Below, piece by piece: positions 4,950 through 55,554 of a stretch of 64,000 nt of DNA. Under the pieces are notes generated by a model that had not been told where the DNA came from, did no database searches, and was given only the letters and a program-made list of their open reading frames with translations. The stretch's first letter is position 1. Every line of letters starts with the position of its first letter. The position numbers and the translations under genes were made by a program. Location of the stretch: positions 34,121 through 98,120 of the forward strand of contig MPNG01000003.1 of assembly GCA_002238905.1 (NCBI GenBank), read 5' to 3'. The DNA comes from Alphaproteobacteria bacterium bin98 (lineage in GTDB: Bacteria > Pseudomonadota > Alphaproteobacteria > Bin98).

Positions 4950-6124
4950 AACTTCCCTCTTAATATTGCTGGCTGTATGCAGTCTTGCAAGATCTTCGAG
5001 TGAAGTTTTTGCTCAAGGCCTATTTGTTTCTGCTCCAGGATAATTTTTAACTTCTCTAGCGTCATCTTTCTGCCGTCACTTGTAAACACCTGGTAGGCTT
5101 TTTTTCTACCACGTGGCAAACAAACCGCCGTACCCACAGAGGCTTTCCAGTTAAAATACTCTGCTGTAAAAGGTGATTGAATAAAACATACAGCATCTGC
5201 GTTCGCGATACAGCCTGCTTGCAATTGGGTAAACCTTTCCGTCGGAAGCAGCACCTTTTGCAAACCTCCATCTCGCCACACCTCCCATTCCACAAAAGGT
5301 ATGTTGGCAGACTCTATCACTGCATTGTAGTGGCTTGGATAAAGGCCATTCACTGCAAATAAAACATCACAAACTTTCAAGCCGTTCCGATTCTCTGTCA
5401 TGACGGAAAAAAGAAAAGGCTCTCCTGGATACCTCTGACTAAAGATATTGAGCATTTCTTCTGTCACAACTTTATGTGTCAAAAGAGTCGATGCGTAAAA
5501 TGTTGCGCTCTCCAGAGGAACATAGCGCATTTCTTCCGTGTGTCGAGATAGGAGCATTTTTAAGGATTTTTTTATAAATTTTGCACGCACAAAAGAAGCA
5601 TTTATAGCAACACCAACTAAACCATCTTTAGAAAACAATAAGGGTAGAGCGCTGCTTTCATTCCATCTTTGCCAAAAGTATCCATTCGTGCGCTGATAGA
5701 CATTATTTTCATAAGCCAAGAGGGTTTCTGTGACTTCCGACTCATTCGCATGATAAGACCACACTTGTGTTGGCAAATTTTCATGATCATCAAGTGGTAT
5801 GGCATGGCTTTCTTCAGGAATTTCTTCAGCTTGCAAAAACATAAAGCCATGTATGGGGTGAACAAAAACAACACGAGCGTTCACTAACATACCCCCATGC
5901 AAACACAGCCTTACCTTTGTTACAGGCGCAATATGCACCAAGGAAAGGAACGCAACAAAAAGCTTTTTTTCCTTGTCAATAAGAGCGGTGGGAACTATGT
6001 GTTTTTCTGGCGAACCTTCTTTAAAAACTTCTACCATTGCGGACCCAACGCTTTGCGACACACACGCAGGATCTGGCGCAGCGCCACACAAAGACAAAAC
6101 ATATAGTAGCGCTATCCACTTCAT
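4946..6124 (-). CDS. Secreted HtrA-like trypsin-fold/PDZ paralog 4 (degenerate active site)
   Basis: The ORF track extends to 6259, but the likely start is the internal Met of MKWIALLYVLSLCGAAP (signal peptide), at about 6124, which abuts the paralog-5 stop. ALIDKEKKLFVAFLSLVHIA sits at the His-box position and SKDGLVGVAINASF at the Ser-box position. The PDZ-like segment is CDVLFAVNGLYPSHYNAV. Confidence 0.5.
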   Translation of the reverse strand: MKWIALLYVLSLCGAAPDPACVSQSVGSAMVEVFKEGSPEKHIVPTALIDKEKKLFVAFLSLVHIAPVTKVRLCLHGGMLVNARVVFVHPIHGFMFLQAEEIPEESHAIPLDDHENLPTQVWSYHANESEVTETLLAYENNVYQRTNGYFWQRWNESSALPLLFSKDGLVGVAINASFVRAKFIKKSLKMLLSRHTEEMRYVPLESATFYASTLLTHKVVTEEMLNIFSQRYPGEPFLFSVMTENRNGLKVCDVLFAVNGLYPSHYNAVIESANIPFVEWEVWRDGGLQKVLLPTERFTQLQAGCIANADAVCFIQSPFTAEYFNWKASVGTAVCLPRGRKKAYQVFTSDGRKMTLEKLKIILEQKQIGLEQKLHSKILQDCIQPAILRGKL

Positions 6125-7509
6125 GCGGCCCAACCTGCTCTTTTGGTGCACTGCTGTTCTAAATTGACAAATCTGGATAGTTTTTTTGATGGCAAAAAAC
6201 AGCCTTTGTTTGTACTGGTAAGTAGCAAATCTATACCACTCAAAGCAATATTTTGGCAAGCAAGCATCGCTATATCCACCAAATCTGAAAAGTTTTTAAC
6301 AACCTGACCATTTGCGGACTGCACAAAAAATCTATCACCTTGGGAATAAGGGGTAAAAGGGTCAGCAAAGCGCATCACCACGCCACCCATACCTTCCATG
6401 CCTGGCACACGCGCATCGGTAAACAGAAGTGGTCCCCAATAAAATAAGCGCTTAGGGGCATAATCCAGTGAATTAGATACGGGCGTTTGCACCGTCTTTT
6501 TGACGCCTCTTCTGAGCACCGTTAACTGAATCATAGGGGCATTATCTTCGGCCGCTTTATCCAAAAAGGACTGTAGCAGATCCGGGTTTCTGCTTATATC
6601 ATGCTCACAACCTTGGTAGTGCAAAGAAAGCACAACATCGCCAATATGGGGGGCATTTTCTTCCACAGGCATCCTAACGTTCTTCACTATGAGTTGCTGA
6701 GCATATCCATAACGCTCCATAATCCCTTTGGGAAGTGTAGCAGTATCAATGCCATCAAAACAGCATCGGTCAACCAAAAACCCCCCTTTTAAGCTAGTAG
6801 CCGGCAAAAACCCACGTTTTGTATTTTTCCCTTTCTTTTTAAACGCAGCCACCAGATCTCTGATACCCCCTATGTCCATCACACGCATATTGCGCCGCCT
6901 TCCTTGCATGACACCGCAGCACTTATTGTCTTTATTGAGAAGGAGCATGCCTTGCACAACATCCTCACACTCAAGAGGACAAGCCACAGTAACGCGCATT
7001 TTGTTATTAATCGATGGTTCTTCCAAGATTCTTTTGTGTAGCTCTTTGAAATAGGGTGTCGCGTGAAACAAAAATACCTCTTGGCCTTGATGCACAGTCT
7101 CTTGTGCAAAACGCACCTCCTCATCATTGGCAATATTATCAAGAAACGAATCCTCTATCTGCATAATAAGCGTTGATGTGGGATGATCTATAAAGACAAT
7201 GTGTGCATCCATAGAGCCGTGGGTAGCGCTATAAATATAGCAGCGCTCATCTCCCGTAAAGTAGGTTGCGTTATCTGTATACACCAGCATAAGCCCTCTC
7301 TTTTTATCAATCAGCATGCCAACAGATTTCTTAAACGTTGATTCACTTTGCAACCCTACATAGCGCGGAGCAAAAGAAACTTTATACCAAGTAGGAACTG
7401 ACGAAAACAGCCATGAACAAATGAAAAATAAGAAAAATGACCGCCTCATGGGCACAACATAACACACTAGCGCAACCCAGAAAAGAATTCTTGCAAAAGT
7501 GCGGCGCAA
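6121..7509 (-). CDS. Secreted HtrA-like trypsin-fold/PDZ paralog 5 (degenerate active site)
   Basis: The 462 aa ORF has a hydrophobic N-terminus. MLIDKKRGLMLVYTDNATYF sits at the His-box position with no His in register. The PDZ-like segment is HIGDVVLSLHYQGCEHD. The start region overlaps the tadA stop. Confidence 0.5.
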   Translation of the reverse strand: MRRTFARILFWVALVCYVVPMRRSFFLFFICSWLFSSVPTWYKVSFAPRYVGLQSESTFKKSVGMLIDKKRGLMLVYTDNATYFTGDERCYIYSATHGSMDAHIVFIDHPTSTLIMQIEDSFLDNIANDEEVRFAQETVHQGQEVFLFHATPYFKELHKRILEEPSINNKMRVTVACPLECEDVVQGMLLLNKDNKCCGVMQGRRRNMRVMDIGGIRDLVAAFKKKGKNTKRGFLPATSLKGGFLVDRCCFDGIDTATLPKGIMERYGYAQQLIVKNVRMPVEENAPHIGDVVLSLHYQGCEHDISRNPDLLQSFLDKAAEDNAPMIQLTVLRRGVKKTVQTPVSNSLDYAPKRLFYWGPLLFTDARVPGMEGMGGVVMRFADPFTPYSQGDRFFVQSANGQVVKNFSDLVDIAMLACQNIALSGIDLLLTSTNKGCFLPSKKLSRFVNLEQQCTKRAGWAA

Positions 7510-7934: not shown

Positions 7935-8609
7935 TTATCGGCGCACCAAGCAGTCTTCTCCGCTATTTTTCAGGGATCGACACAACTGATTTGCTTCTGA
8001 CAAGGGCATATCCGCAATCGTCACGCGGTAAAGAGTGCGACCCTTCACTTTTGTTTGCATCAACACCACTTTGTCTCTGCTACCTACAAGAAGGCTTTTG
8101 TACGGGTCACGCTTGCTAAGATTACGTATTAAAGTTGTTGCTTGAGCACGCGTTTTAAACGTTGCCAAATCAAGATCCACCATTGTATCTGGAACCGTTT
8201 GTTTTTTTTCGGTGGCCACTACACGATCTTCATCTGTATAAATATTCACAACATCTGAGTGGATGCTGTAGTAATTACGACCTTCTCGTTGAGGCTCTTT
8301 TATTGCAGGAATCTCTTTGCGTCCTACAGAAGTATCTCGGGGACGCTCAGGCTCTTTATCCAACAAACGATAAACCGCCATGCCTTTGTCTTCAGCGCGA
8401 TATCCACCAGGCTCGGATGGCACTGCGCGCACAACGCCGCTTGGTGCTTGCACATAGATAACCCCACGGCTTTCTGGCGGAGAAAACACAAACCAAAGCA
8501 AAATAATAATAATGAGAATAAAAGCAACGAGTGCTAAGCGTACTCGTACGCTCATACGCCGTCCAGCGTATATATATTTTTCTTCTTCTTCAGAACGCCA
8601 ATCGCTCAT
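7935..8609 (-). CDS. SPOR-domain membrane protein (peptidoglycan-binding; septal or cell-wall associated)
   Basis: It has an N-terminal TM segment, LALVAFILIIIILLWFVF, and a C-terminal SPOR-like segment, GRTLYRVTIADMPLSEANQLCRSLKNSGEDCLVRR. Confidence 0.55.
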   Translation of the reverse strand: MSDWRSEEEEKYIYAGRRMSVRVRLALVAFILIIIILLWFVFSPPESRGVIYVQAPSGVVRAVPSEPGGYRAEDKGMAVYRLLDKEPERPRDTSVGRKEIPAIKEPQREGRNYYSIHSDVVNIYTDEDRVVATEKKQTVPDTMVDLDLATFKTRAQATTLIRNLSKRDPYKSLLVGSRDKVVLMQTKVKGRTLYRVTIADMPLSEANQLCRSLKNSGEDCLVRR

Positions 8610-8663
8610 ACACTACCCTGAAAACCCTATCCATTGCAGCCCATTATATCATGAAGAAAGCCA

Positions 8664-9170
8664 TTACGAAGAAGCTATATTGCTGTACAAATTAGTAAAA
8701 AATTTTTTCATGGGCATCTTACACACACCATAGCGGCGCGCAAAGTCTAGCCACCACACAAAACCCAACTCTGGAAGAGGATTCAAAAAATCTTCGTTGC
8801 GCGTAACACGCCAGTGGTGCAAACGCAGAATGCATTCCCACACACACCACAAAGGCACATGATGCTTGGGCATGTCATGATGGCATGATGCACTATAAAT
8901 CTTATATAAATATTGCGATTTTATCTTGATGTGAGGGACTTTGGGGGGCGCTGGCGCCACATCGGCCGCCTTCACAACATCGGAAGATGTCAAGCGCATA
9001 GTCATACGACTACCGACTTCAAGGCATAAGCCTAAAGACATAGCTTCCCGCACATGATGCAGCTCCACGCCATCCACCACGAGCAGACATGCGGACCCAC
9101 GCTGCACACGCATATTGACACTTTGTGGGGAGTTTTGATAAAAAAAATCAACGATCTTTGCGATATTCAC
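8664..9170 (-). CDS. Hypothetical Cys/His-rich protein
   Basis: The 168 aa ORF lies on the same strand immediately downstream of rpsU. No recognisable family; it has clusters of His/Cys (CHHDMPKHHVPLWCVWEC). Confidence 0.4.
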   Translation of the reverse strand: MNIAKIVDFFYQNSPQSVNMRVQRGSACLLVVDGVELHHVREAMSLGLCLEVGSRMTMRLTSSDVVKAADVAPAPPKVPHIKIKSQYLYKIYSASCHHDMPKHHVPLWCVWECILRLHHWRVTRNEDFLNPLPELGFVWWLDFARRYGVCKMPMKKFFTNLYSNIASS

Positions 9171-9176
9171 AAAGCT

Positions 9177-9380
9177 TTAATCATCACGACCAAATCGTTT
9201 TGAGTTAAGCTTACGCAAACGCTTAACCGATTCAGCGCGCTCACGAACTCTTTTTTCAGAAGGCTTTTCATAGCTTTGGTGCATTTTAAAGGCTTTCAAA
9301 ATACCTTCTTGCATAACCCGTCTTTTAAAAACCCTTAATGCCTGTTCAGCTTTATCATCAGAAACAAATACTTTAACCAC
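9177..9380 (-). CDS. rpsU: 30S ribosomal protein S21
   Basis: The 67 aa protein reads MVKVFVSDDKAEQALRVFKRRVMQEGILKAFKMHQSYEKPSEKR, a typical S21 sequence. Confidence 0.85.
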   Translation of the reverse strand: MVKVFVSDDKAEQALRVFKRRVMQEGILKAFKMHQSYEKPSEKRVRERAESVKRLRKLNSKRFGRDD

Positions 9381-9528
9381 TTCTTCTCCTGTAGCAAACT
9401 ATTGTAGCACACCCCTCTATCATTCTCAATTGTGGCAACAATTATACAGACAACACGCACTTTTTAATCACCAACAGCAACCACCCTTGTTCTGATACAG
9501 TAAAAACTGTAGTCTGTTTGGGGGAGTT

Positions 9529-10044
9529 ATGATGTTATTTTTACTAATATTTTTATTATCGTTAGTGGGATGTGGCCCACAAATGCATGACACTGTCGAG
9601 TCGTTACCACGCGGCGCCTACATTCTGGACAAAGAATCTTTTATGAAGACGCCAAAACCAGTGACACCTTATGTTGTGCACTTCTTGCGATCAAAGGGAT
9701 TCCTGATTAATCCTTTAAACATCAAAGGGCGGATGCTGAGATACACGCTTTTTGCAGATTACAAAGTCATTACAGAAGGAAATCAAAACGTTGCTGTTTT
9801 GCGTTTACTGGCTGATTGTCCGCGCAACAAGCGAGGCAATGCCCTGATAACTATCAAGCGCACCATTGATCCAAATGAACCGCTCGATCGTCATATTCGC
9901 CTTATGGTGACAGCGCTTGACAACAAATTCCCAATTGTTAATGGGTCAGGGCAAGCAACGTGCTCATTTGAATACGGCCTTGAAAGCTCTTTTTCCGCCA
10001 AAGGTAGATTAAGATCCAACAGATCTAACAGTATGAGAAGATAA
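9529..10044 (+). CDS. Putative lipoprotein, hypothetical
   Basis: It has a signal peptide with a lipobox-like LLSLVGC motif. No recognisable family. Confidence 0.45.
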   Translation: MMLFLLIFLLSLVGCGPQMHDTVESLPRGAYILDKESFMKTPKPVTPYVVHFLRSKGFLINPLNIKGRMLRYTLFADYKVITEGNQNVAVLRLLADCPRNKRGNALITIKRTIDPNEPLDRHIRLMVTALDNKFPIVNGSGQATCSFEYGLESSFSAKGRLRSNRSNSMRR

Positions 10045-42518: not shown

Positions 42519-44201
42519 TTAGTACGCCTCAACCAACGGAGAGGACTCCGGAACAATTGGTTGCAACAACACAGAGGGGCAAACATCAGAAGCGTGAGGC
42601 GGAGTCTTGAAAGCCTTCCAGTGCGCGGCAAAAGACACTTGAGAAAAAGAAAAACACCCTGCCGTCATTGCCATAAGAGGCACATGGAGATGGCTGGAAC
42701 CGTTTTCGCGTATCTGGCGCACCAAGTCTTGAGCTACTTGGATCGATGGTTTTGTATCGGCATCCTCTATCATTTTTAGAGAAAAGAATTGCGCAACTTC
42801 AGCCAAATAGCGGATTCTTTCCGAGTGCTTGTCTCCAGGAATGAGTCCATACTCTGCGTTCATAGCATAACCCAGAAATAATTGCATCCTGCCCATTTTT
42901 TCTGACTGGTTAGCCAATATAGTCATGGTCTCAGCAGTTTTTTGAGGAAATTCGCCCGTCAGAGGAGGAGGAGCAGCATCTACCTCTTCTCGACCATGCA
43001 CGGTGTCATCCGCATGCACAACTGCCTCCACCACCTCCTCAGTGAGCGTGGCATAGTCTCCGAAGTTCTCCATCAGATCACTGCCCGTAGTTTTCAAGCA
43101 CTGACCTATACAGCAAAATAATGATTTAAGCCAGTGTCGGCCACCATTATTTCTAAACTCTTCCATGCCTGTTGTGCTTCCTTTAGCCACAGCATTGAGC
43201 CCCATTTTGCCCAGTGGCATAATTTTTTGAATGACTGCCATAACAGCTTTCATTTTTTGAATCTCCTCGCTGGTACCTACTGTCTCTGATTCGTCGCCAT
43301 CTACTGCCTCTAATCCGACTTTTTTCCTGCGGAGCAAATCCGAAAGTGCATTGAAGGGTTTTTCCAAAAAATCATCAAAAGTTACTTCATTAGTGCTAAC
43401 CCTTTCAGCCCAACGATCTGCTTGAGCAGCCAGCCTTTCAGCAATGCTGTGATAAAAATCAGTAACCCGAGAATTTACGGATGAGAGGTCTTGATCTATT
43501 ACGCTAGGCAGAGCCATTACCGCAGTTTGCATCACAAGAATGGCATGCTTTAGCAAATTGCTATTCAACAAATCAGCAAAATGCACGGCATCACGTGCGA
43601 CTAATCCAAGCCCAGACAAGGATCGCCTGACACAATCTGACACTGTTGTTTGACTTACGTTTGCGGGAGCAACACACCAAACCTTCTTGACTATAGCCTG
43701 GAACATATCGTTATTTTTATCACACCAATCGGCTGCTAACTCAGAGGCGCACTGAGCCACTAATTTATGAGACGCCTGGGCTTGAGCCATAAGAGATGAG
43801 CGGAACGGTTCATGCGGGATACGCACCTTTGCTGGTCCTACAGGAACAAATCTGCTCTCTGGCGGTTCAACTACAGCGAATCGAGGCCTAACTCTGGAAC
43901 CCGCATTTATCCCTTCTGTGCCCTGCTTCGGATCTATATTCAGACTCACCTCTTGAGCCGACGTCAGATCCACTCTCTCTACCTCTACACCTAGCGCCTG
44001 TGCCTCCTGAAACGACGGATTAAATGCTATGCCCCCCTCTTCAACACCCAAAGCCAGGTTCAGATCTGAGGTACTGCTGCCTAAATCCCGCATCCTCTCT
44101 TTTGTCGCCACTAATGTAGAGCTGGATACGATCGATGTATCTGCGAACTCCTCCAGCGCTCCGTACACCAGCGCCACTAAAAAATATAATAAATAAAACA
44201 T
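42519..44201 (-). CDS. Large secreted/membrane-anchored hypothetical protein with no recognisable family
   Basis: The 560 aa protein has a hydrophobic N-terminus, MFYLLYFLVALVYGAL. There are no enzymatic motifs, and acidic/Pro-rich segments are present. A 550-bp noncoding region lies upstream. Confidence 0.5.
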   Translation of the reverse strand: MFYLLYFLVALVYGALEEFADTSIVSSSTLVATKERMRDLGSSTSDLNLALGVEEGGIAFNPSFQEAQALGVEVERVDLTSAQEVSLNIDPKQGTEGINAGSRVRPRFAVVEPPESRFVPVGPAKVRIPHEPFRSSLMAQAQASHKLVAQCASELAADWCDKNNDMFQAIVKKVWCVAPANVSQTTVSDCVRRSLSGLGLVARDAVHFADLLNSNLLKHAILVMQTAVMALPSVIDQDLSSVNSRVTDFYHSIAERLAAQADRWAERVSTNEVTFDDFLEKPFNALSDLLRRKKVGLEAVDGDESETVGTSEEIQKMKAVMAVIQKIMPLGKMGLNAVAKGSTTGMEEFRNNGGRHWLKSLFCCIGQCLKTTGSDLMENFGDYATLTEEVVEAVVHADDTVHGREEVDAAPPPLTGEFPQKTAETMTILANQSEKMGRMQLFLGYAMNAEYGLIPGDKHSERIRYLAEVAQFFSLKMIEDADTKPSIQVAQDLVRQIRENGSSHLHVPLMAMTAGCFSFSQVSFAAHWKAFKTPPHASDVCPSVLLQPIVPESSPLVEAY

Positions 44202-44751: not shown

Positions 44752-46284
44752 ATGATTAATAACCGACTGCAATTTTTAAAAAAAACCCTATGGGTTGCCA
44801 TTTTTACGATTGGCAGCCGTATATTAGGGTACTTTCGCGAAAGAATGCTTGCACAATTTTTAGGTGTTTGCGCTTCTACGGATGCACTTCTTATTGCCAT
44901 CAAGCTTCCCTCGTTTTTTAGACGCAGTTTAGCGGAAGGTGCGCTAAGCTCCTCCTTTGTACCCATTTTATCTTCCGAGCTGCATAATAAAGAAAACCAG
45001 TCTTCCCTCATTCTCACCTCTCTTGCCTTTCTTGCGCTTGCATTAGCGCCTCTTATTTTTTCCTTTGAAATTTGGACTGACTCTATTATCACAACTCTTT
45101 TTCCCAAACTTACCGAAACGCCAACAAGACTACAACTCACCATTCACTTTTCTCGCATCATCTTTCCTTTTATTGGAATGATTAGTTTAGCCAGCTTGTT
45201 TAGCGGCATTTTGCAAAGCCACCTTCGCTTTAATCTGGTTGCCAGCGCCCCCATGATGGGAAACCTTTCGCTCATCATCACAGGGCTGTGCTTTTTGCCA
45301 GCGGCAGAAGAAAAAGCCGGTGCTATTTTCGCCTGGTCTGTTTTGGTATCTGGGTGTGTCCATTTTTTATGGGTGTGCATACCCGCCATACGCCTTATTC
45401 CGAGAGGGGGTGTTGTGAACTTTTCCTCCCCCGCCTTTCAAAAATTCATCAAAAACTTTTTTCCTGGCGTTATAGGAACTACAAGCCTCCAAATCAACAT
45501 TCTTATCGATACTATCTTTATTACACTGTTAGGAGTAGGGGGGGCTTCTTACCTATCTTACGCAGATCGCATTATACAACTTCCTATCAGTGTCATCAGC
45601 GCCTCGCTCAGCCTCACACTATTGCCAGCACTCACACTCAGTATTGCTCAAAAAGAAAAACAAATGTTTGATAAACTTTTTGCCCTCAGCATTTCCTTTT
45701 GTTTGATTTTTGCCATACCAGCATCTTTGGCGTGCCTACATCTGAGCGCATTCCTTATTCGCGCACTTTACAACTACGGATCCTTTTCCCAGGAACATAT
45801 CACCCCAACAGCACACACACTAATGGCCTTTGCATTAGGCCTACCCGCTTTTTTGCTTTCTAAAGTCTTATCAACATTATTTTTTGCCCACAAAGACACG
45901 CGCACTCCTGCACTCATCACATTAATTTCCGTTTCCATATGCATTATCAGCAACCTCATTTTGCTCAAATCATGGCAGCACATAGGATTAGCGCTTTCCA
46001 CAACCATCAGCGCTTACGTCCACACTCTATGCCTTTACGTTATTGCCAAAAGAAGAAAAATTCTTCCCAACAAACTTTCCAAAAAAATCATGCTTTCACG
46101 CATTATCATCACAAATATATTGTTTTTTCTCTTTATCAAATACACGGGACCAATGCTTGTAGAATACGTCTATGACTGGAATCGTTTTGTAGGAATATGC
46201 GCTCTTGTTGGCTTCATAGTTATGGTATACTCCATTATCGCCTTTTCTTGTGGTTTGTGGGGCGTTTGGAGAAAAAGCCAGTGA
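44752..46284 (+). CDS. murJ: Lipid II flippase MurJ (MviN)
   Basis: The 510 aa protein has about 14 TM segments, and the N-terminus TIGSRILGYFRERMLAQFLGV is the MurJ signature. Confidence 0.8.
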   Translation: MINNRLQFLKKTLWVAIFTIGSRILGYFRERMLAQFLGVCASTDALLIAIKLPSFFRRSLAEGALSSSFVPILSSELHNKENQSSLILTSLAFLALALAPLIFSFEIWTDSIITTLFPKLTETPTRLQLTIHFSRIIFPFIGMISLASLFSGILQSHLRFNLVASAPMMGNLSLIITGLCFLPAAEEKAGAIFAWSVLVSGCVHFLWVCIPAIRLIPRGGVVNFSSPAFQKFIKNFFPGVIGTTSLQINILIDTIFITLLGVGGASYLSYADRIIQLPISVISASLSLTLLPALTLSIAQKEKQMFDKLFALSISFCLIFAIPASLACLHLSAFLIRALYNYGSFSQEHITPTAHTLMAFALGLPAFLLSKVLSTLFFAHKDTRTPALITLISVSICIISNLILLKSWQHIGLALSTTISAYVHTLCLYVIAKRRKILPNKLSKKIMLSRIIITNILFFLFIKYTGPMLVEYVYDWNRFVGICALVGFIVMVYSIIAFSCGLWGVWRKSQ

Positions 46285-47582
46285 CAATTGCAGCATTTAT
46301 ATTAGCAGGCGGGCAGGGAAAGCGCGTAGCAGGACCGATTGCAAAAATAGAGCTTCCCATTGCAGGGTTGCCTTGCATTCAACACCTCCTTAATACTGTA
46401 GAAAGCATTAAGTCTTTAGTGCCCTTTATTATTGCCTCACCTGAATTTGCACAAAAACATACACACCACGCAATACAAAAAATTCCGCACGGAACAGGAG
46501 ATGCTGTACGTGTTGGATGCCAAGCGTGGGGCAGCACACCTCCTGATGTCGTTCTTATCCTTTACGCTGACGTTCCACTTATTAGCAAAGAATCGTTAGA
46601 AAGCCTTTTGGAGCGTCATGTTCAGGACAACAACGACATCTCGTTGTTGTCTTTTAACGCCCCCTTACCGAATAACTATGGTCGCATCATTGCTCGCGAA
46701 GATGACCATAGCGTACAAGCTATTATTGACGGCGCAGACGAAAAACGTGCACTTTCGGGATGCATATTGGCATACAGCGGCATTATGGCGATTAACGGCC
46801 CTCTTCTTTGGAAGAGCATAAAAAAACTTTCCCAGAACAACCAACAAGGCGAACTCTACCTCACAGATATTGTTCAAATAGCCCACAAAGAACACCACAA
46901 AGTACAGCACTGTATGATTCCACAAGAAGAAGCTCAAGGGCTCAACACATGGCAGGACTGGATGAACCTGGAAAATATTTTTCAATCACGCATGCGCTCA
47001 AAATGGTTTGAACAAGGCACTCTCATCAGCGAACTGGTCCACCTGCATCATGACACTCAGCTAGAATCCGGCATTCGCATAGAGCCCTTCGTAACCTTAG
47101 GAGCGCAAGTCTCTATTCAAAAAGGGGCACATATCTTACCTCACTCACATATTTCCAACAGCACCATTGGCCCGAATGCCCTCATTGGCCCGTTTGCACA
47201 CATTCACAGCAACTCTCATATTCATAGCCACAGCCACATTGGAAATTTTGTAGAATGCAAAGAAACACAAGCCATGGAATATGTAAAAGCCAAGCACCTC
47301 GCTTACTTAGGAAACGCCACACTACACAAGCACACCAACGTAGGCGCCGGCGCTGTATGTGCTAATTACGATGGAAAAGCAAAACACCAAACTATCGTGG
47401 AAGAAGGTGGTTTTGTGGGAGCAAACACCACATTAATTGCCCCTATCACAGTAGAAAAAAATGCCTTTATTGCCGCAGGATCCACTGTAACAAAAAATAT
47501 TCCGGAAAACGCTCTGGCCATTGCGCGCCCTCCTCAAGAAAACAAACAAGGGTGGGCGTCTGCTTGTAAAAAGAAATCGTAA
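46281..47582 (+). CDS. glmU: Bifunctional N-acetylglucosamine-1-phosphate uridyltransferase/glucosamine-1-phosphate acetyltransferase
   Basis: The N-terminus has AFILAGGQGKRV and GTGDAV. The C-terminal LbH hexapeptide repeats read NVGAGAVCANYDGKAKHQTIVEEGGFVGANTTLIAPITV. The start is placed at the GTG overlapping the murJ stop (GTGA); the track ORF starts at 46197. Confidence 0.8.
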   Translation: MTIAAFILAGGQGKRVAGPIAKIELPIAGLPCIQHLLNTVESIKSLVPFIIASPEFAQKHTHHAIQKIPHGTGDAVRVGCQAWGSTPPDVVLILYADVPLISKESLESLLERHVQDNNDISLLSFNAPLPNNYGRIIAREDDHSVQAIIDGADEKRALSGCILAYSGIMAINGPLLWKSIKKLSQNNQQGELYLTDIVQIAHKEHHKVQHCMIPQEEAQGLNTWQDWMNLENIFQSRMRSKWFEQGTLISELVHLHHDTQLESGIRIEPFVTLGAQVSIQKGAHILPHSHISNSTIGPNALIGPFAHIHSNSHIHSHSHIGNFVECKETQAMEYVKAKHLAYLGNATLHKHTNVGAGAVCANYDGKAKHQTIVEEGGFVGANTTLIAPITVEKNAFIAAGSTVTKNIPENALAIARPPQENKQGWASACKKKS

Positions 47583-47584
47583 TT

Positions 47585-48898
47585 ATGTTTTTGTTTTCTC
47601 ATACACCAATAGAAGCTTTAGGCACGCTCTGTTTTGACTATAAAGATGGCGCATTCTTCCCATCCCAAAAAGGTCGCTTACATCTAGGAAGTCTCACCTA
47701 TATGGCTCACAACAACCAGCTGTTAGTCGCCTATATTGGCAAGCCTTGCATGCCCATAACCCTTGATTTTTCCAAACATCCTAATGATTTACAAGCGCAA
47801 CAACTATTAACAATCATCGAAAGCTCCGGCGTTGAAGAAAGCCTCAGTCAACTCAAAAGTTCTGAACCGTTTGCAGTCCTTGTGTGGTGCACGCAAACAA
47901 ACACTGTGTATGTACGGTCGCACAGCATAGGGTGCTACGCAGGACAAAACACAATCACCACAAACCCACTTTTATCCTCTCAGCCTACAGCGCTTATCGA
48001 ACAAAACACAACGTGGCGTTTTGGACAACAAACCAACACAGTCTCCACATATCATCTGCTCACCAACCACAAAACACCACCAGCGTACCCTTTGCCACAA
48101 CCTCTGACAGAGAACATTACACAGATTTCTATTTTTGCAGAAAACATGGGCCTTTGTGTATCTCGCATGATTAAAGACAGTATAGAAGGAAGCCATGGCA
48201 TTCAAACGTTTATTTTCCCAATTACCTCTCACATGCCTATAAAAGCAAGCGCCACACACCCTGTGTTTCTTCTGCCCTCACCTTTTTCTCATTATCAGCA
48301 CCTTTTGCACACACTTGCTCAGCAACCGCACGTATACGTTATAGATCCATCACGAGATTTTTTGCGCCACGATCACATGGAGCCATTGTTTCACCATATG
48401 CATCAATGGCGACATGCTATGCACATGATTACACACCAAAGCACGCCAGAGCCTATCGCTCTTAGTGATAGCTTGCAAAAAACCTTGACTCAGGCACTTC
48501 CAGAAATGCAATCATCTCTCAGGTTTTATTTAGGAAGGCATGTGTTTGCCGGATTTGCACGTGTTTGTGCGTATTACGATCAAAAACACACACGATCCGC
48601 ATCATTTCACTATCCTGCGGGAGAGCTCAAACATGGACCTCTTGCGGTAGTGGATGAGTCAGTGTTAGCTATTATTTTTTGCCCCCATGACGATATTTTC
48701 TCAAAAAACATCGCATCCATCCACGAAATTCTCTGCAGAAAAGGAAAGGTTCTTTGCTTGACAGATCAAGAAGGCGGGGATTTTATTCGTAATAATTTGG
48801 GAATAAACACCTATATATTTTCCCATCAAAGCCAGGAAGAGTTTATTATGCAAGCGTGGACAGCAATGCATTGGCTCATACATCAATTGGAGTGTTAA
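47585..48898 (+). CDS. Hypothetical protein whose C-terminus resembles the second SIS (isomerase) domain of GlmS
   Basis: The 437 aa protein has no N-terminal Cys/Ntn glutaminase motif. The C-terminal [30 protein letters not shown] matches the GlmS motif [22 protein letters not shown]. It is wedged between glmU and glmS. Confidence 0.5.
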   Translation: [437 protein letters not shown]

Positions 48899-48899
48899 T

Positions 48900-50687
48900 A
48901 TGTGTGGTATTTTTTCTTTTATATCCAGAGAGCCCTCTTCCATCGCCACAGTATTAGTGGAAGGTTTGCAAAAGATTACTTACCGTGGGTATGACTCTGT
49001 GGGAGTTTCTGTGCTCCATAATGAAGAACATCATGTGATTAAAGCGGTAGGCAATATGGATCAACTCGCGCCTCTTATGCCAAAAAAATCCTTACAAGCG
49101 CATGTTGGTATTGGACACATTCGATGGGCCACCAACGGATCTGTTTCTTTGCAAAACGCACACCCTGTAGCCTCAAAACACTTTGCGTTAGTGCATAATG
49201 GTATTATTTCCAATATCGATGACATCGCCCCCAGGCTTCCAAAAATCTCTGTTTTAAAAGGAGAGACAGACTCTGAGGTTGTGGTTCATTTTTGTGAACA
49301 TTTGTGGTCTAACAATCGTTCTTCCTTTTTTTCGCTTGAGCGAGCAGTGGAACTCTTAGAGGGTAGCTGGGCATTAGCCATAGCGTGCACAAAAAATCCA
49401 GAATCTCTCTTATTCGCTCGCAAGCAATCCCCGCTCATTATTGGCGAAGCACCTGAAGGTTTTTACTTAGCATCTGACATAGGATCTATGCCGGATACGG
49501 TAACAGAGTTAACGTTTCCGGAAGATGGGGATTACGGATTTGTTAACACAAAAGAAATTATTGTTTATAACAACAAGAAAGAGGTCGTGCGCCCCACATC
49601 CCCACATGTCACCACACAACAAACAGCAACAAAGGGATCATTTTCTTCCTTTTTGCTCAAGGAGATTCATGAGCAGCCTGATGTGGTGCGCTCTATTTTA
49701 AAAAACAATGTACAAAAGACAGAATCTTCCTCCTTCACACCATCTTTTGCAGAAAGTGTCCGCATCCGCACAGCGCGTATGCATCTCATCGCATGTGGAT
49801 CTTCTTATTACGCAAGCTTATTAGGGGTACATTGGTTGGAAAAAATTGCTAATATTGCCGCTTCACCTTACATCGCATCTGAGTATTACTGGCAGTGCGC
49901 AGAAGATAAAATGTGTGCTTTTATATCGCAATCAGGAGAAACAGCCGATATTTTACGATTGTTTTCTGAGCCTTTAAAGCCCAAAGCCAAACACACCATG
50001 TGTTTGATAAACAGCGCTCACTCTTCTTTAAGCAGATTGGTGCCTAGGGTTATCCCTTTGTATGCTGGTGTGGAGCGAAGCGTAGCTTCTACAAAGGCTT
50101 TTCTTTCCCAAATCACAACACTTTTTCTTTTGGCATGCGCCTGGGGCGGAGAAGAGGGGCGCAAACACATTGCAAAACTTGAAACACTACCCACTCTTTT
50201 GGATACCTTGATAAAGGGATCCTACGATTTTTTGGCCACCAACATTCCGCCGCTTTTAGATATCAATCACTACATTTTCTTATCTGCAGAAAATCTCTAC
50301 CCTATTATTGTCGAAGGAAGCCTAAAGATGAAGGAGCTTTCTTACATTACATCAACCGCCTACACGTTTGACAACATGCCTTTTTTGCACATTCATCCAC
50401 ACTCTATGCTGATCATTGTACTCAACAAAGATCATGAACCTTTAGCGCATGAGGCGCTTGCCTTAGCTCTTCAGGATCATGCGCCTTTTGTGATAGTCAT
50501 TACCAACGGCCCAAGCGACCTTATACCCCCACATTGCCTACATCTTGAAACTCCCGAATGTGACCACTTAGTGTTTCCTATGCTCGCAACACCTTTTTTA
50601 CAAATGATTGCGCTAGTGGTGGCGGAACATCGCGGCAGCTGCATTGATCAACCACGCAACCTGGCAAAATCCGTTACAGTTGAGTAA
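48900..50687 (+). CDS. glmS: Glutamine--fructose-6-phosphate aminotransferase
   Basis: The protein has MCGIF (N-terminal nucleophile Cys), the first SIS domain (FISQSGETADIL, VASTKAF) and the canonical C-terminus DQPRNLAKSVTVE. The segment around the ELKHGP motif is divergent (ELSYITSTAYTFDNMPFLHIHPHS). Confidence 0.8.
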   Translation: MCGIFSFISREPSSIATVLVEGLQKITYRGYDSVGVSVLHNEEHHVIKAVGNMDQLAPLMPKKSLQAHVGIGHIRWATNGSVSLQNAHPVASKHFALVHNGIISNIDDIAPRLPKISVLKGETDSEVVVHFCEHLWSNNRSSFFSLERAVELLEGSWALAIACTKNPESLLFARKQSPLIIGEAPEGFYLASDIGSMPDTVTELTFPEDGDYGFVNTKEIIVYNNKKEVVRPTSPHVTTQQTATKGSFSSFLLKEIHEQPDVVRSILKNNVQKTESSSFTPSFAESVRIRTARMHLIACGSSYYASLLGVHWLEKIANIAASPYIASEYYWQCAEDKMCAFISQSGETADILRLFSEPLKPKAKHTMCLINSAHSSLSRLVPRVIPLYAGVERSVASTKAFLSQITTLFLLACAWGGEEGRKHIAKLETLPTLLDTLIKGSYDFLATNIPPLLDINHYIFLSAENLYPIIVEGSLKMKELSYITSTAYTFDNMPFLHIHPHSMLIIVLNKDHEPLAHEALALALQDHAPFVIVITNGPSDLIPPHCLHLETPECDHLVFPMLATPFLQMIALVVAEHRGSCIDQPRNLAKSVTVE

Positions 50688-51407
50688 TTATTTTGCTAAA
50701 CTGCGGTAAGCGGTAATCAGCTTCTGTGAGTATGGGTCTTGCAATTGGTTTTCGTTTAACTGCTTTTTGGTAACAATTTCGAGGATTTCTCCTTGACGCA
50801 TAATGGCAATACGGTCTGCGAGATACTCCATGGCCACAAGCGAGTGTGCCACAAAAAAGTAGGTAAGATTGTGCGTTTTCTTAAGATCACGCAAAAGCTT
50901 TAGCACACGCCCTTTAATGTACGCATCCAAAGCGGATGTGGGTTCATCAAGAAACACTACCTTTGGTTTGCAAATAAGAGCGCGTGCAATACACACACGC
51001 TGTCTTTGTCCACCGGAGAGTTCGTGTGGGTAACGTCGCAAAAAAGACTGATCCAGATACGTTTCTGAAAGCGCTTGTTCAATGCGCTCTTGCGCGCAGT
51101 CCATTTCCCCTCGTAAATACAGAGGCTCCTGTAAAATAAACTCCACCGTATGGCGTGGGTGCAACCCTCCCACGGGATCTTGCGGAACAAGGTGAATACC
51201 ATCAATAATATCCACCTCTCCCTGATAGGCGTTAAATCTTCCTGTGAGCACTCTTGTTATTAACGACTTACCGGCGCCTGATTCACCTAAAACGCCAAAG
51301 GTTTCGCCTGGATGAACGGAAAAACTAACATTATCCAACAACTTTTCTTGCGGTCTATTGGGGTTGTAAACATTGAGATTTTTAACAGAAAGATATGCGT
51401 TTGTCAT
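50688..51407 (-). CDS. ABC transporter ATP-binding protein (DppF/OppF-like)
   Basis: The protein has GESGAGKS (Walker A), LSGGQRQRVCIARAL (signature) and FLDEPTSALD (Walker B). Confidence 0.8.
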   Translation of the reverse strand: MTNAYLSVKNLNVYNPNRPQEKLLDNVSFSVHPGETFGVLGESGAGKSLITRVLTGRFNAYQGEVDIIDGIHLVPQDPVGGLHPRHTVEFILQEPLYLRGEMDCAQERIEQALSETYLDQSFLRRYPHELSGGQRQRVCIARALICKPKVVFLDEPTSALDAYIKGRVLKLLRDLKKTHNLTYFFVAHSLVAMEYLADRIAIMRQGEILEIVTKKQLNENQLQDPYSQKLITAYRSLAK

Positions 51408-52168
51408 TGCGTTATGGCCGTTAATAGTTTGCGTGTGTGGGGATGAACAGACTGCTTCAGGTTTTTGGATAAAATATTTTCTACCACACGCCCTTCATGC
51501 ATCACGATAATTCTGTCGGTAAAGTTACGCACCATATTGATATCATGACTAATCAGCAAAAACGAAGCTTGGCGCGTGGATAGGTCTTGATCAATCAAAC
51601 GAAGTATCTCCACTCCTACAGGCGCATCCAGCGATGAGGTGGGCTCATCACCAATAAGAAGCAGGGGTTTTAATGCCATCATCATAGCCACCATAACCCG
51701 CTGCGCCATGCCACCAGAAAGCTGTCCTGGATAACTTTTTGCAATGCGGTCTGCCTCAAAAAGTTGCACGCTGTGCAAGAGTCGTTTTACTTCTAAAAAC
51801 TTTTCCACTTTGCTCATATAACCTGGAAGTGCTTCCCCTATTTGCTTTTCTACAGTCATCATGGGATTTAAAGCGACCAACGGGTCTTGCAAAATAACGG
51901 CAATGGGAAGGTGTTCCGCTTTGCAATATTCTCCTGCATTATAAATAGGGGTATCATGAAAGTATATTTTTGTACTTTCAGACGGTACAGCCTGGGATGG
52001 TAAGATGCCCAGAACTGCACGCATAATCATTGTTTTTCCAGCGCCAGATGCACCCACAACAGCTACTTTTTCATTACGGCGAATACACAGGGAGATGTCG
52101 TGCAAAACCTGTATAGGTTCTTTACCCTTTCTTTCTATGTTTAAAGAAAATTTCTCTATTCTTAACAT
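51404..52168 (-). CDS. ABC transporter ATP-binding protein (DppD/OppD-like)
   Basis: The protein has GASGAGKT, LSGGMAQRVMVAMMMAL and LIGDEPTSSLD. Confidence 0.8.
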   Translation of the reverse strand: MLRIEKFSLNIERKGKEPIQVLHDISLCIRRNEKVAVVGASGAGKTMIMRAVLGILPSQAVPSESTKIYFHDTPIYNAGEYCKAEHLPIAVILQDPLVALNPMMTVEKQIGEALPGYMSKVEKFLEVKRLLHSVQLFEADRIAKSYPGQLSGGMAQRVMVAMMMALKPLLLIGDEPTSSLDAPVGVEILRLIDQDLSTRQASFLLISHDINMVRNFTDRIIVMHEGRVVENILSKNLKQSVHPHTRKLLTAITQ

Positions 52169-52169
52169 T

Positions 52170-53009
52170 TTAAAGCTCCTTAGGGTTTAAAACATCCCGC
52201 AATGCATCTCCAAGGGAGTTCATAGAAAAACTCAGTAAGAAAATACTTCCTCCTGGCACAATAGCCACCCATGGGTGCGTAAGAAGGAATGAGCTGCCTT
52301 GTGCTGCCATATAGCCCCATTCAGGGACATCTGTGGATACCCCTAATCCCAAAAATCCTAAGCTAGCTGCGGTGAGTACAACAGTGGAACAGTCAAGAGA
52401 GGCTCTGACCACTGCTGATGGCAGAACAATAGGAGCCAAGTGATAGCGCAGTATGTAAAGAAAACTTGCTCCCTGAAGACGGGCAATATGGATAAAATCA
52501 GACTCTTTAATTTGTATAGTTTCCACGCAAGCAAGACGTGTATAAGCGGGCCAAATCGCAACCGAGATAGAAACGATCATCACTCCCCATCCTGTGCGTC
52601 CAAAAAGCGCTGGAACCATCATCGCAACCACTAATCTTGGAATAGAAATCCAAACATCCGTAAAACGCAAAGCGGCTTTTTGAAGAAATCCTCCTCTGTA
52701 TCCGGCAATAACACCAAGGCACACACCAAAAGGAACAGAAAACAGCATAGTGCAAATCACAATAATAAAAGCAGTCCTTGTTCCATAAACAATTCTAGAA
52801 AACAAATCACGGCCTATATCATCTGTTCCCAAAAAGTGCTGAAAAGAGAATCCCTGCATACGGTCCTGAATGGTTACAGAATCTGGCGTTTGTGCAGCAA
52901 AGAACGATGGGAAAAGGGCAAACAGCACAAAAACCATAAAAACAAAAAGAGAAACGAGTGCGACTTTATTGTGCGCAATTTCACGTAAAAAATTCTGACG
53001 TATCATCAT
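52170..53009 (-). CDS. ABC transporter permease (DppC/OppC-like)
   Basis: The 279 aa protein has 6 TM segments and a BPD_transp_1-like EAA loop region. Confidence 0.7.
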   Translation of the reverse strand: MMIRQNFLREIAHNKVALVSLFVFMVFVLFALFPSFFAAQTPDSVTIQDRMQGFSFQHFLGTDDIGRDLFSRIVYGTRTAFIIVICTMLFSVPFGVCLGVIAGYRGGFLQKAALRFTDVWISIPRLVVAMMVPALFGRTGWGVMIVSISVAIWPAYTRLACVETIQIKESDFIHIARLQGASFLYILRYHLAPIVLPSAVVRASLDCSTVVLTAASLGFLGLGVSTDVPEWGYMAAQGSSFLLTHPWVAIVPGGSIFLLSFSMNSLGDALRDVLNPKEL

Positions 53010-53992
53010 GTTTTACTCCTTTGAGAAGGGGTTTGAGGATAAGACATATCCACAAAAGTATCTACAAGAAAATTACACGAAAGCACAATCACTCCCACTA
53101 TAAGGGTTGTACCCATAATAGCTGTTTCATCATGAGCCAACACAGCACGTACTAAGTACGACCCTATACCGTTTAAAGAAAATACTGTTTCTGTAATCAC
53201 AGATCCCTCTAATAGCTGTGTATAGGAAAGAATCAGAACCGGCAAAAGGCGCGGCATAATATTAGGCATCATGTGCACAAAAAATACACGCGTAAAAGAG
53301 AGGTGTTTGATTTTTGCTGTAATCATATACTGAGCAGAAATTTCGTGCAAGACAAACCCTCGCATCATACGCGTAATATAGGCAAGGGCGATATAAGCCA
53401 AGAGCACAGCAGGTGGCCATAGAATAAGCCAACTTTCTGCAAGTGCATTCCAGTCTCTCCTGATCAAAGATCTGATCAGCCCTGTCTGCATATCTCCTAA
53501 ATGAAGGCCACTTTGTCCCATAGAAAGCGCTAGCATTAAGACGCCATATCCTATTAAAAAGTTAGGAACGCTGTGCCCAATAAAAACAAATGACCTTACT
53601 ATCTTATCTAGCCTTCCTTTTTTAAAGGCACACAGTACTCCTAGCGGAATGCCGATAAATATACCAAAAAGAAGCGCAATGGTTGCTAACTCTAGAGTTA
53701 AGGGCAAAACACGCTGCAAATCTTGCCAAACGGGTTTTTTGGTCAAAAATGATACTCCTATATCACCAGAGAGCAATCCTTTTACATAATAACAAAATCT
53801 TATGATAACGGGCTTGTCTAAACCCAAGCTCTTAGCGGTAGCATCGTATATTTCTTGTGTAGCGCTTTCTCCTATGAGCGCAATCACCGGATCTACCGGA
53901 TTCATTACACTCATAACAAAAGTAAAAAGCAGTAATATTAAAAGAGAAAATACAAACCAATACGTGTGTTTAAGAAACCTTCCTATATCCAT
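53006..53992 (-). CDS. ABC transporter permease (DppB/OppB-like)
   Basis: The 328 aa polytopic membrane protein overlaps its neighbours by start/stop in the operon. Confidence 0.7.
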   Translation of the reverse strand: MDIGRFLKHTYWFVFSLLILLLFTFVMSVMNPVDPVIALIGESATQEIYDATAKSLGLDKPVIIRFCYYVKGLLSGDIGVSFLTKKPVWQDLQRVLPLTLELATIALLFGIFIGIPLGVLCAFKKGRLDKIVRSFVFIGHSVPNFLIGYGVLMLALSMGQSGLHLGDMQTGLIRSLIRRDWNALAESWLILWPPAVLLAYIALAYITRMMRGFVLHEISAQYMITAKIKHLSFTRVFFVHMMPNIMPRLLPVLILSYTQLLEGSVITETVFSLNGIGSYLVRAVLAHDETAIMGTTLIVGVIVLSCNFLVDTFVDMSYPQTPSQRSKT

Positions 53993-55554
53993 TACACATC
54001 TTTCTTGTAAAGGTGGTGATAAATCAGCGCTTCCTTTATAAATATCCTTGGACCCGACAAGCGCTTAGAAAAGAGTATAGTTGCATAAATTTCAGCTAAG
54101 GGTATCAAAGGCACTTTTTGGTAACGTCTTTGAATTTCTTCATAAATTTTAGTACGCTCTGTAGTATCCATAATAGTTGATGCTTTATGTGCCATTTCTT
54201 GCAAACCCTCTACATCAAGGCTATTACGCCACGCTACGAACGTTACCGCCTGTGATTCATTTTGAGGCAACAGGACAAACGTTGTAATAAAAGTGTGGGG
54301 ATCGTTATAATCAGCACCAAACATCTTAAGACTCATTTGATGCTGTCTTTTGCGCAAACGAGAGATAGCTTGACGGGCATCAAAATAGTTTAATTTCAAC
54401 TTAATACCACCTTTTGCAAAAATGCTTTGGTAAACCTGAGCAAGCGCTAACATGGATGTATCAAATTCTATTTCGATGTCTCCCCCATATTCTGCATGAA
54501 TGATTTCTCGCGCTTTTTCTGGGTTAAATTCAGGAAGTTCTGGATTTGTTATATGCCCCAAAAATCCACTTGGCACAAGAGTTGGCAAAGGTTGAGCAAC
54601 TTTTTCTCCCAACACCTTACTCATGACTGAATAATCGATAAGGTGACGAATGGCTTGATGTACAGCAGGGTTTTTAAGGTACTTGTTAGATTGATTAAGA
54701 TTTAAGTACCAAATCTGCGCTTTGCTTATGTACTCCAAATCATATTTTTCCTTATCAACGCTTTCGCTTTGTTCTTGTGGTAAATCACGAATGATATCCA
54801 CCTCTCCTCTTTTTAGGAGAAGCATTTGCGTCGCTACATCACCAACATGACGCAATATCACGGTTGTAAATTTAATATCATCAGAATCTTCATAGTAAGG
54901 GTTCCTCTTCATAGTCAGAACTTCCCCTGGCTGCCACACACCCAACATAAGAGGACCACTACCTGCTCCTGCTGAGCGCAACCAGGCCGCACCATAGTCA
55001 TCATTTACTGTATGCTCTTTCACAAGCGCCGCATCCAAGATCGAGGATGCACTTGCAGCTAAGCACGTCAAAACAAGATCTTTGCTTAGCGGATTCTGAA
55101 ATTCTAGCTCTACTGTGTGTGGGTCCACCTCTCTAATGTGTTGACGCACACTCTGCGGTGTAAACCCTAAAGGCGCAAACATGATGTATGCCGCCTTTTG
55201 CATTAACACCAACCTTCTCAAAGAGTAAACAACATCTTCCGCGGTCACAACGTTGCCGGAAGAGAAGTATTGATCTTTTTTGATGGTTAAGCGCAGAATT
55301 TTTCCGCCTTCTACAAACTCGTAAGATTCGACCAAATCATTTTGCACAGCACCACCAATAGTTTTAAATAACCTTTGGTAAGTGTTGAAAATGAAGTCCA
55401 TACACTCAGTTTCAAAAACATCGGCTGGATCTAAAGTGATAATAGACGATAATTTTTGAGCCACGATGAGCCTTGATTTCGAAGAAGAGTCTTTCGAACA
55501 ATTACCAAGCCCTAGCAAAATAGCTAGCGCAATCAACCAATTTTTTTTAAACAT
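53992..55554 (-). CDS. Periplasmic substrate-binding lipoprotein, SBP family 5 (peptide/opp-dpp type)
   Basis: The 520 aa protein has a signal with lipobox (LGLGNCS). Its size and sequence pattern match DppA/OppA-like SBPs, and it is the first gene of the ABC operon. Confidence 0.7.
   Translation of the reverse strand: MFKKNWLIALAILLGLGNCSKDSSSKSRLIVAQKLSSIITLDPADVFETECMDFIFNTYQRLFKTIGGAVQNDLVESYEFVEGGKILRLTIKKDQYFSSGNVVTAEDVVYSLRRLVLMQKAAYIMFAPLGFTPQSVRQHIREVDPHTVELEFQNPLSKDLVLTCLAASASSILDAALVKEHTVNDDYGAAWLRSAGAGSGPLMLGVWQPGEVLTMKRNPYYEDSDDIKFTTVILRHVGDVATQMLLLKRGEVDIIRDLPQEQSESVDKEKYDLEYISKAQIWYLNLNQSNKYLKNPAVHQAIRHLIDYSVMSKVLGEKVAQPLPTLVPSGFLGHITNPELPEFNPEKAREIIHAEYGGDIEIEFDTSMLALAQVYQSIFAKGGIKLKLNYFDARQAISRLRKRQHQMSLKMFGADYNDPHTFITTFVLLPQNESQAVTFVAWRNSLDVEGLQEMAHKASTIMDTTERTKIYEEIQRRYQKVPLIPLAEIYATILFSKRLSGPRIFIKEALIYHHLYKKDV

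Follow-up and report, generated by a model that had tools for sequence, protein, structure and literature searches.

Gene Organization of the Locus

The window, by which we mean the whole 64 kb stretch of DNA that was analysed, contains a string of four genes on the forward strand: murJ, encoding the lipid II flippase (44752–46284; Pfam MurJ, E = 4.5e-85), is followed by glmU, encoding the bifunctional GlcNAc-1-P uridyltransferase / GlcN-1-P acetyltransferase (46281–47582; TIGR01173, 371 bits), by an ORF of 437 aa that begins with ATG (47585–48898), and by glmS, encoding a glutamine--fructose-6-phosphate aminotransferase of 595 aa (48900–50687; TIGR01135, 448 bits). The ORF between glmU and glmS, in the following called X, has the position and length given in the preliminary description, as confirmed by the ORF listing and by the TIGR01173 and TIGR01135 matches of its neighbours. 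In the NCBI annotation X is a "SIS domain-containing protein" and its partner an ordinary GlmS; we describe it here as a GlmS-derived pseudoenzyme and propose it as a histidine-donor subunit.

murJ and glmU share the 4 nt GTGA (46281–46284), in which the TGA stop of the former is merged with the probable GTG start of the latter, the glmU stop (TAA, 47580–47582) is separated by 2 nt from the ATG of X at 47585, and the stop of X (TAA, 48896–48898) by a single nucleotide from the ATG of glmS at 48900, so that murJ, glmU, X and glmS are packed without intergenic space; the gaps of 2–3 nt stated earlier are corrected by these measurements. For glmU, the mechanically assigned ORF start (46197) probably lies about 28 codons too far upstream and the GTG at 46281 appears likelier: the TIGR01173 match sets in only at ORF residue 32, and glmU orthologues start with M(T/K)IAAFILAGG. 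A Shine–Dalgarno-like GGAG for glmS (48889–48892, forward strand) precedes the glmS ATG by 7 nt and thus falls inside the final codons of X, from which we infer that X and glmS are translationally coupled. No terminator was found between glmU, X and glmS in a scan of the region (10 sites vs 7.7 ± 2.7 in shuffled controls), and no other GlmS-like sequence is present within the 64 kb window.

On the other side of murJ, a large ORF without Pfam match occupies positions 42519–44201 of the reverse strand. Large Pfam-less ORFs (560–690 aa) also lie beside murJ in the related loci L001 (539–2611), L002 (928–2952) and L093 (2032–3906); grouped by position and size only, these ORFs may represent a lineage-specific, fast-evolving protein. 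A dipeptide/oligopeptide ABC transporter operon (50688–55554, reverse strand) adjoins the glmS stop and comprises two ATPases, two permeases and a substrate-binding protein, the last assigned through synteny with PF00496 genes in L004 and L008; this arrangement of glmS and the transporter is kept in most relatives. Elsewhere in the window, five tandem ORFs of 429–462 aa with 23–26% mutual identity (1015–7509, reverse strand), one of which (3612–4949, reverse strand) carries a trypsin-like peptidase domain, look like an old, diverging array of tandem paralogues.

X Is Derived from GlmS

The GlmS profile (TIGR01135 / NF001484, EC 2.6.1.16; curated cut-off 418 bits) matches X at residues 310–398 with E = 6.6e-13, a match that scores 48 bits, below the cut-off, and covers profile positions 463–551 only. 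In BLASTP, X shares 35% identity over 79 residues with E. coli GlmS (E. coli residues 498–572; E = 1e-12). When a 7-sequence profile of the X family was aligned with a 33-sequence GlmS profile by hhalign, X residues 80–424 paired with GlmS residues 139–577 at a probability of 99.4% (E = 4.5e-21), so that the two proteins are colinear over the latter half of the glutaminase domain and over the two SIS subdomains. A chance resemblance over about 25 residues, the reading that the preliminary description had set against a GlmS origin, is ruled out by these three results. Apart from glmS, no NCBIfam profile matches X.

The same picture emerges from comparison with solved structures. A sequence profile search of the PDB with X retrieves GlmS/GFAT chains at 1e-13 to 1e-22 and NagB-II-like SIS proteins only at 2e-5, and no FrlB or AgaS chain at E values up to 1. 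With a structure model of X based on 43 sequences (pLDDT 78.4, pTM 0.77), the best 50 PDB matches in Foldseek are all GlmS/GFAT (best E = 2e-15), headed by full-length GFAT/GlmS chains with >500 aligned columns; since the 43-sequence alignment contains GlmS rows, this model is partly circular as evidence for the fold and not independent of the sequence searches. An earlier model from 4 sequences (pLDDT 59.6), too poor for detail, gave the same ranking at lower confidence. As its best solved relatives are true GlmS/GFAT and not AgaS, FrlB or NagB-II, X is derived from glmS: judged by its alignments, it is a full-length but catalytically gutted duplicate of glmS itself. A BLASTP comparison of X with the neighbouring GlmS gives nothing significant because the loop that X shares with canonical GlmS is absent from this neighbour; the kinship becomes visible via canonical GlmS or via profiles.

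Three regions can be distinguished in X. Residues 1–175 (47585–48109, forward strand) are poorly conserved, with a mean pairwise identity of 25% and low pLDDT at residues 1–38; the hhalign pairing of residues 80–175 with GlmS 139–290 hints at a probable origin from the C-terminal half of the glutaminase domain, of which a remnant devoid of Cys1 would be left. Residues 176–305 (48110–48499, forward strand) map to the first SIS-like subdomain in hhalign and are modelled with a pLDDT of 80–97; their sugar-phosphate site is destroyed. Residues 306–437 (48500–48895, forward strand) form the second SIS-like subdomain, the best conserved part of X (mean pairwise identity 44%).

Catalytic Residues Lost and Retained in X

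X starts with MFLF and hence has no Cys1 nucleophile, and the residues of the glutamine site (R73, W74, T76, N98, G99, D123) are not alignable by hhalign. Of the sugar-phosphate site, CGTS (300–303) has become ENMG, and the phosphate loop SQSGET (347–352) reads SPFSHY in the window and S[PV]FSP[YH] in the closest relatives. In the window, Tyr stands in place of K485 and Lys in place of E488, a position that is A/S/H/I in relatives; GlmS positions 399–403 are not alignable, and X ends before the 18-residue C-tail of GlmS that carries K603. Across the X family, C300, T302, Q348, S349, T352, K485 and E488 are lost in 7/7 members, G301 and S303 in most.

What the family keeps, at canonical-GlmS stringency and in 7/7 members, are Y497, G500–P506, A508 and D511. 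The central element is the His-loop GELKHGP (48620–48640, forward strand), whose His350 (48632–48634) corresponds to E. coli His504 and which lies within a 13-residue motif at residues 345–357 (nt 48617–48655). It is invariant in all eight full-length X proteins and in the partial copy of L008. A GlmS-type histidine motif near the C-terminus, together with the missing N-terminal cysteine nucleophile and first SIS motifs, had already been read from the letters of the window, and the residue mapping bears this out.

X accordingly resembles GlmS in fold and His-loop only and departs from it in profile score, nucleophile, sugar site and C-tail. The pairing of Glu and His that marks FrlB-type deglycases is likewise incomplete: the histidine is present, and the position 16 residues upstream is occupied by K/A/S/H/I, not by Glu. 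Being a GlmS paralogue that lacks catalytic residues of its own, X is best described, from its sequence, as a GlmS-derived pseudoenzyme.

The Neighbouring GlmS Lacks the Loop Retained by X

By descent and by score (448 vs 418 bits) the gene downstream of X encodes a GlmS, which is 30% identical to E. coli GlmS from end to end. The alignment breaks solely at the His-loop, a loss that the preliminary description overlooked: a shortened, vestigial loop, TFDNMP (50364–50381, forward strand), is left, with Asn492 (50373–50375) at the position of His504. We compiled a residue table in which 26 canonical GlmS sequences are aligned with 7 GlmS of the His-less clade. G500, E501, K503, H504 and G505 are invariant in 26/26 canonical sequences and replaced in the clade, where three residues are deleted just before the His504 position and where H504 has become Asn and E501 Thr in 7/7 cases. 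Apart from the His-loop, and from His77 in the window, the tabulated catalytic and binding residues are present: C1, R26, R73, W74, T76, H86, N98, G99 and D123 are kept in 7/7 clade members, as are C300, G301, S347–T352, V399, K403, K485, K487 and E488, and the C-terminal L601, A602, K603, S604 and V605. The isomerase site of GlmS relies on Glu488, His504 and Lys603 as catalytic residues (PMC9272926), and one of these three is missing here. At the level of catalytic residues, the two neighbouring genes are complementary: GlmS lacks nothing but the His-loop, and X has nothing but the His-loop.

A compensating histidine in cis was considered for GlmS ("LLH", five residues downstream) and discarded, because P0123 and P0127 do not have it. 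Nor can X and the His-less GlmS be put down to a frameshift or to faulty assembly, both genes being complete in independent assemblies. As a separate peculiarity, residue 78 of the window GlmS (49131–49133; E. coli His77) is Asn (RWATNG); histidine occupies this position in 25/26 canonical GlmS and in the other six His-less GlmS.

Distribution of the Gene Pair

The preliminary description had proposed a look at synteny in related genomes. Nine divergent uncultured alphaproteobacterial lineages, namely the window and eight relatives, carry the X–GlmS pair, always in the arrangement glmU–X–glmS and with abutting or overlapping genes. Both halves of the pattern, X and a His-less GlmS, are visible in eight of the nine; the ninth contig (L010) breaks off short of the GlmS loop and shows just the beginning of glmS behind X. 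Among the best 120 homologues of the window GlmS, 113 carry the E.KHG motif and 7 do not, and these 7 all have X directly upstream in the order (murJ-)glmU-X-glmS (window, L001, L002/L003, L004/L005, L006/L007, L008 and L009). A further pair of X and His-less GlmS, reached via SecA and AlaRS, resides on a 1.47-Mb contig (L093; ERZ26695794, ctg497673) whose name ends in _c and which is probably circular; its GlmS reads ...KEISYKESITFSFFETLPHL.... This GlmS (8241–9995), itself without His-loop, also carries Ser at the otherwise invariant Cys300 (ASGSSCY). The full order murJ–glmU–X–glmS recurs in L001, L004, L006 and L093. In every lineage in which the junctions can be seen, X and glmS meet as TAATG, as TAAATG or with a gap of ≤3 nt, and glmU and X overlap or are separated by ≤4 nt.

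Homologues that cover the whole of X are very rare. A search of 5.8 billion clustered proteins gave three, and a profile of the N-terminal 300 residues added two more among 1.84 billion representatives. Neither X nor the His-less GlmS signature was found in the GTDB representative genomes, among which the lineage is not included. A scan of JGI metagenomes with a degenerate 63-nt signature returned 0 matches, an unreliable negative given that the pattern fits the JGI-derived L005 locally, and a metagenome scan with the X alignment recovered canonical GlmS C-termini only. The nearest canonical GlmS (P0128), tried as an outgroup, sits in an unrelated polysaccharide cluster and proved uninformative.

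SecA is 59–70% identical across the lineages and about 50% identical to the next relatives, which are generic Alphaproteobacteria; this marks the X–GlmS pair as a trait of a deep clade of uncultured Alphaproteobacteria, with at least one member, that of the probably circular 1.47-Mb contig, having a small genome. All lineages probably go back to a single ancestral event, so that the co-occurrence counts as one long-maintained evolutionary observation and not as nine independent ones. Since all sequences stem from metagenomes, with 64 kb seen of the window's MAG, to which the proteins MCY4414511 and MCY4414512 belong, a second, canonical glmS may exist elsewhere in these genomes.

The distribution also bears on the view that X is an independent SIS protein of the AgaS/FrlB/NagB-II type, a binder, isomerase or sensor, with the His-less GlmS being self-sufficient or a canonical GlmS being encoded elsewhere. 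The Pfam SIS domain (PF01380) is recognized in X at residues 317–434, just over the threshold (27.4 bits, marginal against a gathering threshold of 25), and the dead pocket of X carries the clade-conserved segments FAENxGLC, RMIKD and HPxILLPSxFSP, which could line a new site. However, X has neither the canonical phosphate loop nor the Glu that acts as general base, the 16-residue Glu/His signature is broken, the PDB profile search favours GlmS/GFAT over any other SIS protein by many orders of magnitude in E (1e-13 to 1e-22 against 2e-5 or worse), and X is found solely beside His-less glmS. We consider an independent function of this kind very unlikely. The suggestion in the preliminary description of a neofunctionalised sugar-phosphate binder finds no support in the same residues, namely SPFSHY in the phosphate loop, the change of CGTS to ENMG, and the loss of K485 and E488.

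Conservation and Selection

Across the lineages, pairwise identity is 20–70% for X, 38–74% for GlmS and 46–82% for GlmU. GELKHGP accounts for 7 of the 29 invariant columns of X and is constant even between copies that are 20% identical overall; mean identity reaches 69% for the loop ± 10 residues, compared with 25% in residues 1–175. None of the X ORFs is disrupted, and their start and stop positions are conserved. A comparison of dN/dS between relatives, another of the checks proposed beforehand, gave 0.09–0.12 for X in the closest pairs and 0.05–0.09 for GlmS; with dS above 2, synonymous sites are saturated and these values are rough, yet they are far from neutrality. By this measure (dN/dS about 0.1), X is under purifying selection.

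These data decide on the possibility that X is a functionless, decaying relic of glmS, a pseudogene that is still open by chance. Such a relic might be expected to look like X in several respects: few catalytic residues are left, conservation is poor in the N-terminal third, and BLASTP does not connect X to the neighbouring GlmS. Against this, the ORF has stayed whole in nine lineages that are saturated at synonymous positions, dN/dS is far below neutrality, start and stop positions are kept, and the 29 invariant columns include a contiguous 7-residue motif. The comparative data effectively refute the relic, which we regard as extremely improbable. Of the "degenerating tandem duplicate" envisaged in the preliminary description, the origin therefore stands, as X is colinear with GlmS; the degeneration does not, given its integrity and constraint across the clade.

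A Proposed Two-Gene GlcN-6-P Synthase

The meaning of the reciprocal pattern depends on where His504 acts. In E. coli-type GlmS, the isomerase site is assembled where the two chains of the dimer meet, from the P-loop 347–352, K485, E488 and K603 of one subunit and His504 of the other (PMC3224219). The corresponding His607 of C. albicans, which is responsible for hydrogen transfer and for opening the sugar ring, is about 3 nm away from the active centre of its own subunit (PMC3224219): the histidine works in trans, completing the active site of the adjacent chain, as it does in the homologue FrlB (PMC3224219, PMC10285752). In FrlB, E224 and H240, which align with E488 and H504 of GlmS, are supplied by separate monomers, and the H240A variant is inactive; a Glu and a His spaced 16 residues apart are nearly universal in FrlB-type deglycases and shared with GlmS homologues (PMC10285752). 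Our literature searches returned no direct kinetics for a His504 mutant of GlmS itself and no residual activity for a His504-less GlmS; the case for His504 being essential draws on the analogy to FrlB H240A and on its near-universal conservation, which together suggest that it would be indispensable. As His504 acts in trans and the His-loop is lost, a homodimer of the His-less GlmS should hold two incomplete sites.

We therefore consider it likely that GlmS and X form an obligate heterodimer in which X donates the ring-opening histidine in trans and on which GlmS activity would depend. X would be an ancient tandem duplicate of glmS that has turned into the non-catalytic subunit of a two-gene GlcN-6-P synthase. 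GlmS would supply the glutaminase site, the sugar-phosphate site, K485/E488 and the K603 tail, and X the canonical His-loop on a GlmS-like double-SIS scaffold. The dimer would consequently contain one complete site, made up of the GlmS residues and His350 of X, and one dead site. The "split/complementing partner", one of three options in the preliminary description, is the one favoured by this pattern, since GlmS has lost exactly the trans-acting His504 loop that X has retained (PMC3224219, PMC10285752).

The most parsimonious history would begin with a tandem duplication of glmS, after which heterodimers would form between both copies. Loss of the His-loop from one copy would then inactivate one site of the heterodimer, that of the partner, and would leave the homodimer of the altered copy with no working site at all. 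With its site already dead, the other copy could lose its own catalytic residues and its glutaminase domain in a freely running decay, and through these reciprocal losses each gene would have become indispensable to the other. Such a process could be seen as duplication–degeneration–complementation or as a constructive-neutral ratchet, in either case at an active site shared between subunits.

X could instead be a regulatory pseudoenzyme that binds GlmS and activates it allosterically, stabilizes it or inhibits it, in the manner of prozyme and AdoMetDC, with a histidine that is not catalytic and a GlmS that opens the sugar ring without a dedicated histidine. Co-occurrence, gene coupling and conservation would fit this equally well, and the vestigial loop of GlmS is itself conserved as A-x-T-[FY]-x-N, which suggests constraints at the interface beyond chemistry. 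It would, however, leave unexplained why a catalytic His-loop is the most conserved element of X, at the stringency of canonical GlmS, and why GlmS has lost precisely the same loop; we regard such a role as unlikely. A different and similarly improbable extension of the histidine-donor heterodimer is that of a half-of-sites enzyme in which the dead but conserved pocket of X, or the supply of X, regulates entry into UDP-GlcNAc synthesis. Other bacteria control glmS by the GlmY/GlmZ sRNAs or by the glmS ribozyme. If true, control by X could stand in for these devices and would be a bacterial, operon-encoded counterpart of prozyme control in trypanosomatids.

GlmS, a drug target, is both essential and near-universal, and to our knowledge it has always been described as a homo-oligomer. 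If the histidine-donor heterodimer is real, a natural two-gene GlmS would illustrate with textbook clarity how subfunctionalisation or constructive neutral evolution can act on individual active-site residues, and would be a natural bacterial counterpart of the classic "complementing mutant heterodimer" experiment. The GlmS/X pair would open three questions to direct tests: if the enzyme can do without His504, if one site per dimer is enough, and how a pseudoenzyme becomes locked in. With X annotated as a SIS protein and its partner as GlmS, a metabolic reconstruction of these reduced genomes would overlook that X is probably required.

Comparison with Known Systems

Full-text literature searches for a GlmS pseudoenzyme and for heterodimeric or paralogous GlmS yielded nothing relevant. 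We regard the GlmS/X system as a variant of a known enzyme and not as a new kind of system. Its closest reference is the homodimeric GlmS (E. coli, EC 2.6.1.16; PDB 1JXA, 2J6H, 4AMV), with which the same fold and chemistry are expected to be shared and next to which glmU is also found. Unlike in the homodimer, the two halves of the interface are encoded here by two genes, one for a catalytic chain without His504 and one for a partner with only the His-loop, and as a result at most one active site is proposed per GlmS/X dimer. The FrlB/FraB deglycases (PDB 8GLR; PMC10285752) resemble the proposed GlmS/X dimer in having an inter-subunit site with Glu and His from different monomers; they are homodimers in which each chain carries both residues, whereas X has neither the Glu nor the phosphate loop.

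In its quaternary organization, the system resembles pairs found in trypanosomatids, where deoxyhypusine synthase and its dead paralogue, and likewise AdoMetDC and its prozyme, are active only together (PMC3663545, PMC5201418). There as here, duplication appears to have turned an enzyme that needs to oligomerise into a pair of paralogues, one catalytic but impaired and the other dead, a division that in our case is read from sequence. The trypanosomatid pairs are eukaryotic, are encoded by unlinked genes, belong to other enzyme families, and their activation is described as allosteric. In contrast, GlmS and X are bacterial, encoded in one operon and, as the junction suggests, translationally coupled, and their residue pattern points to the direct donation of a catalytic residue.
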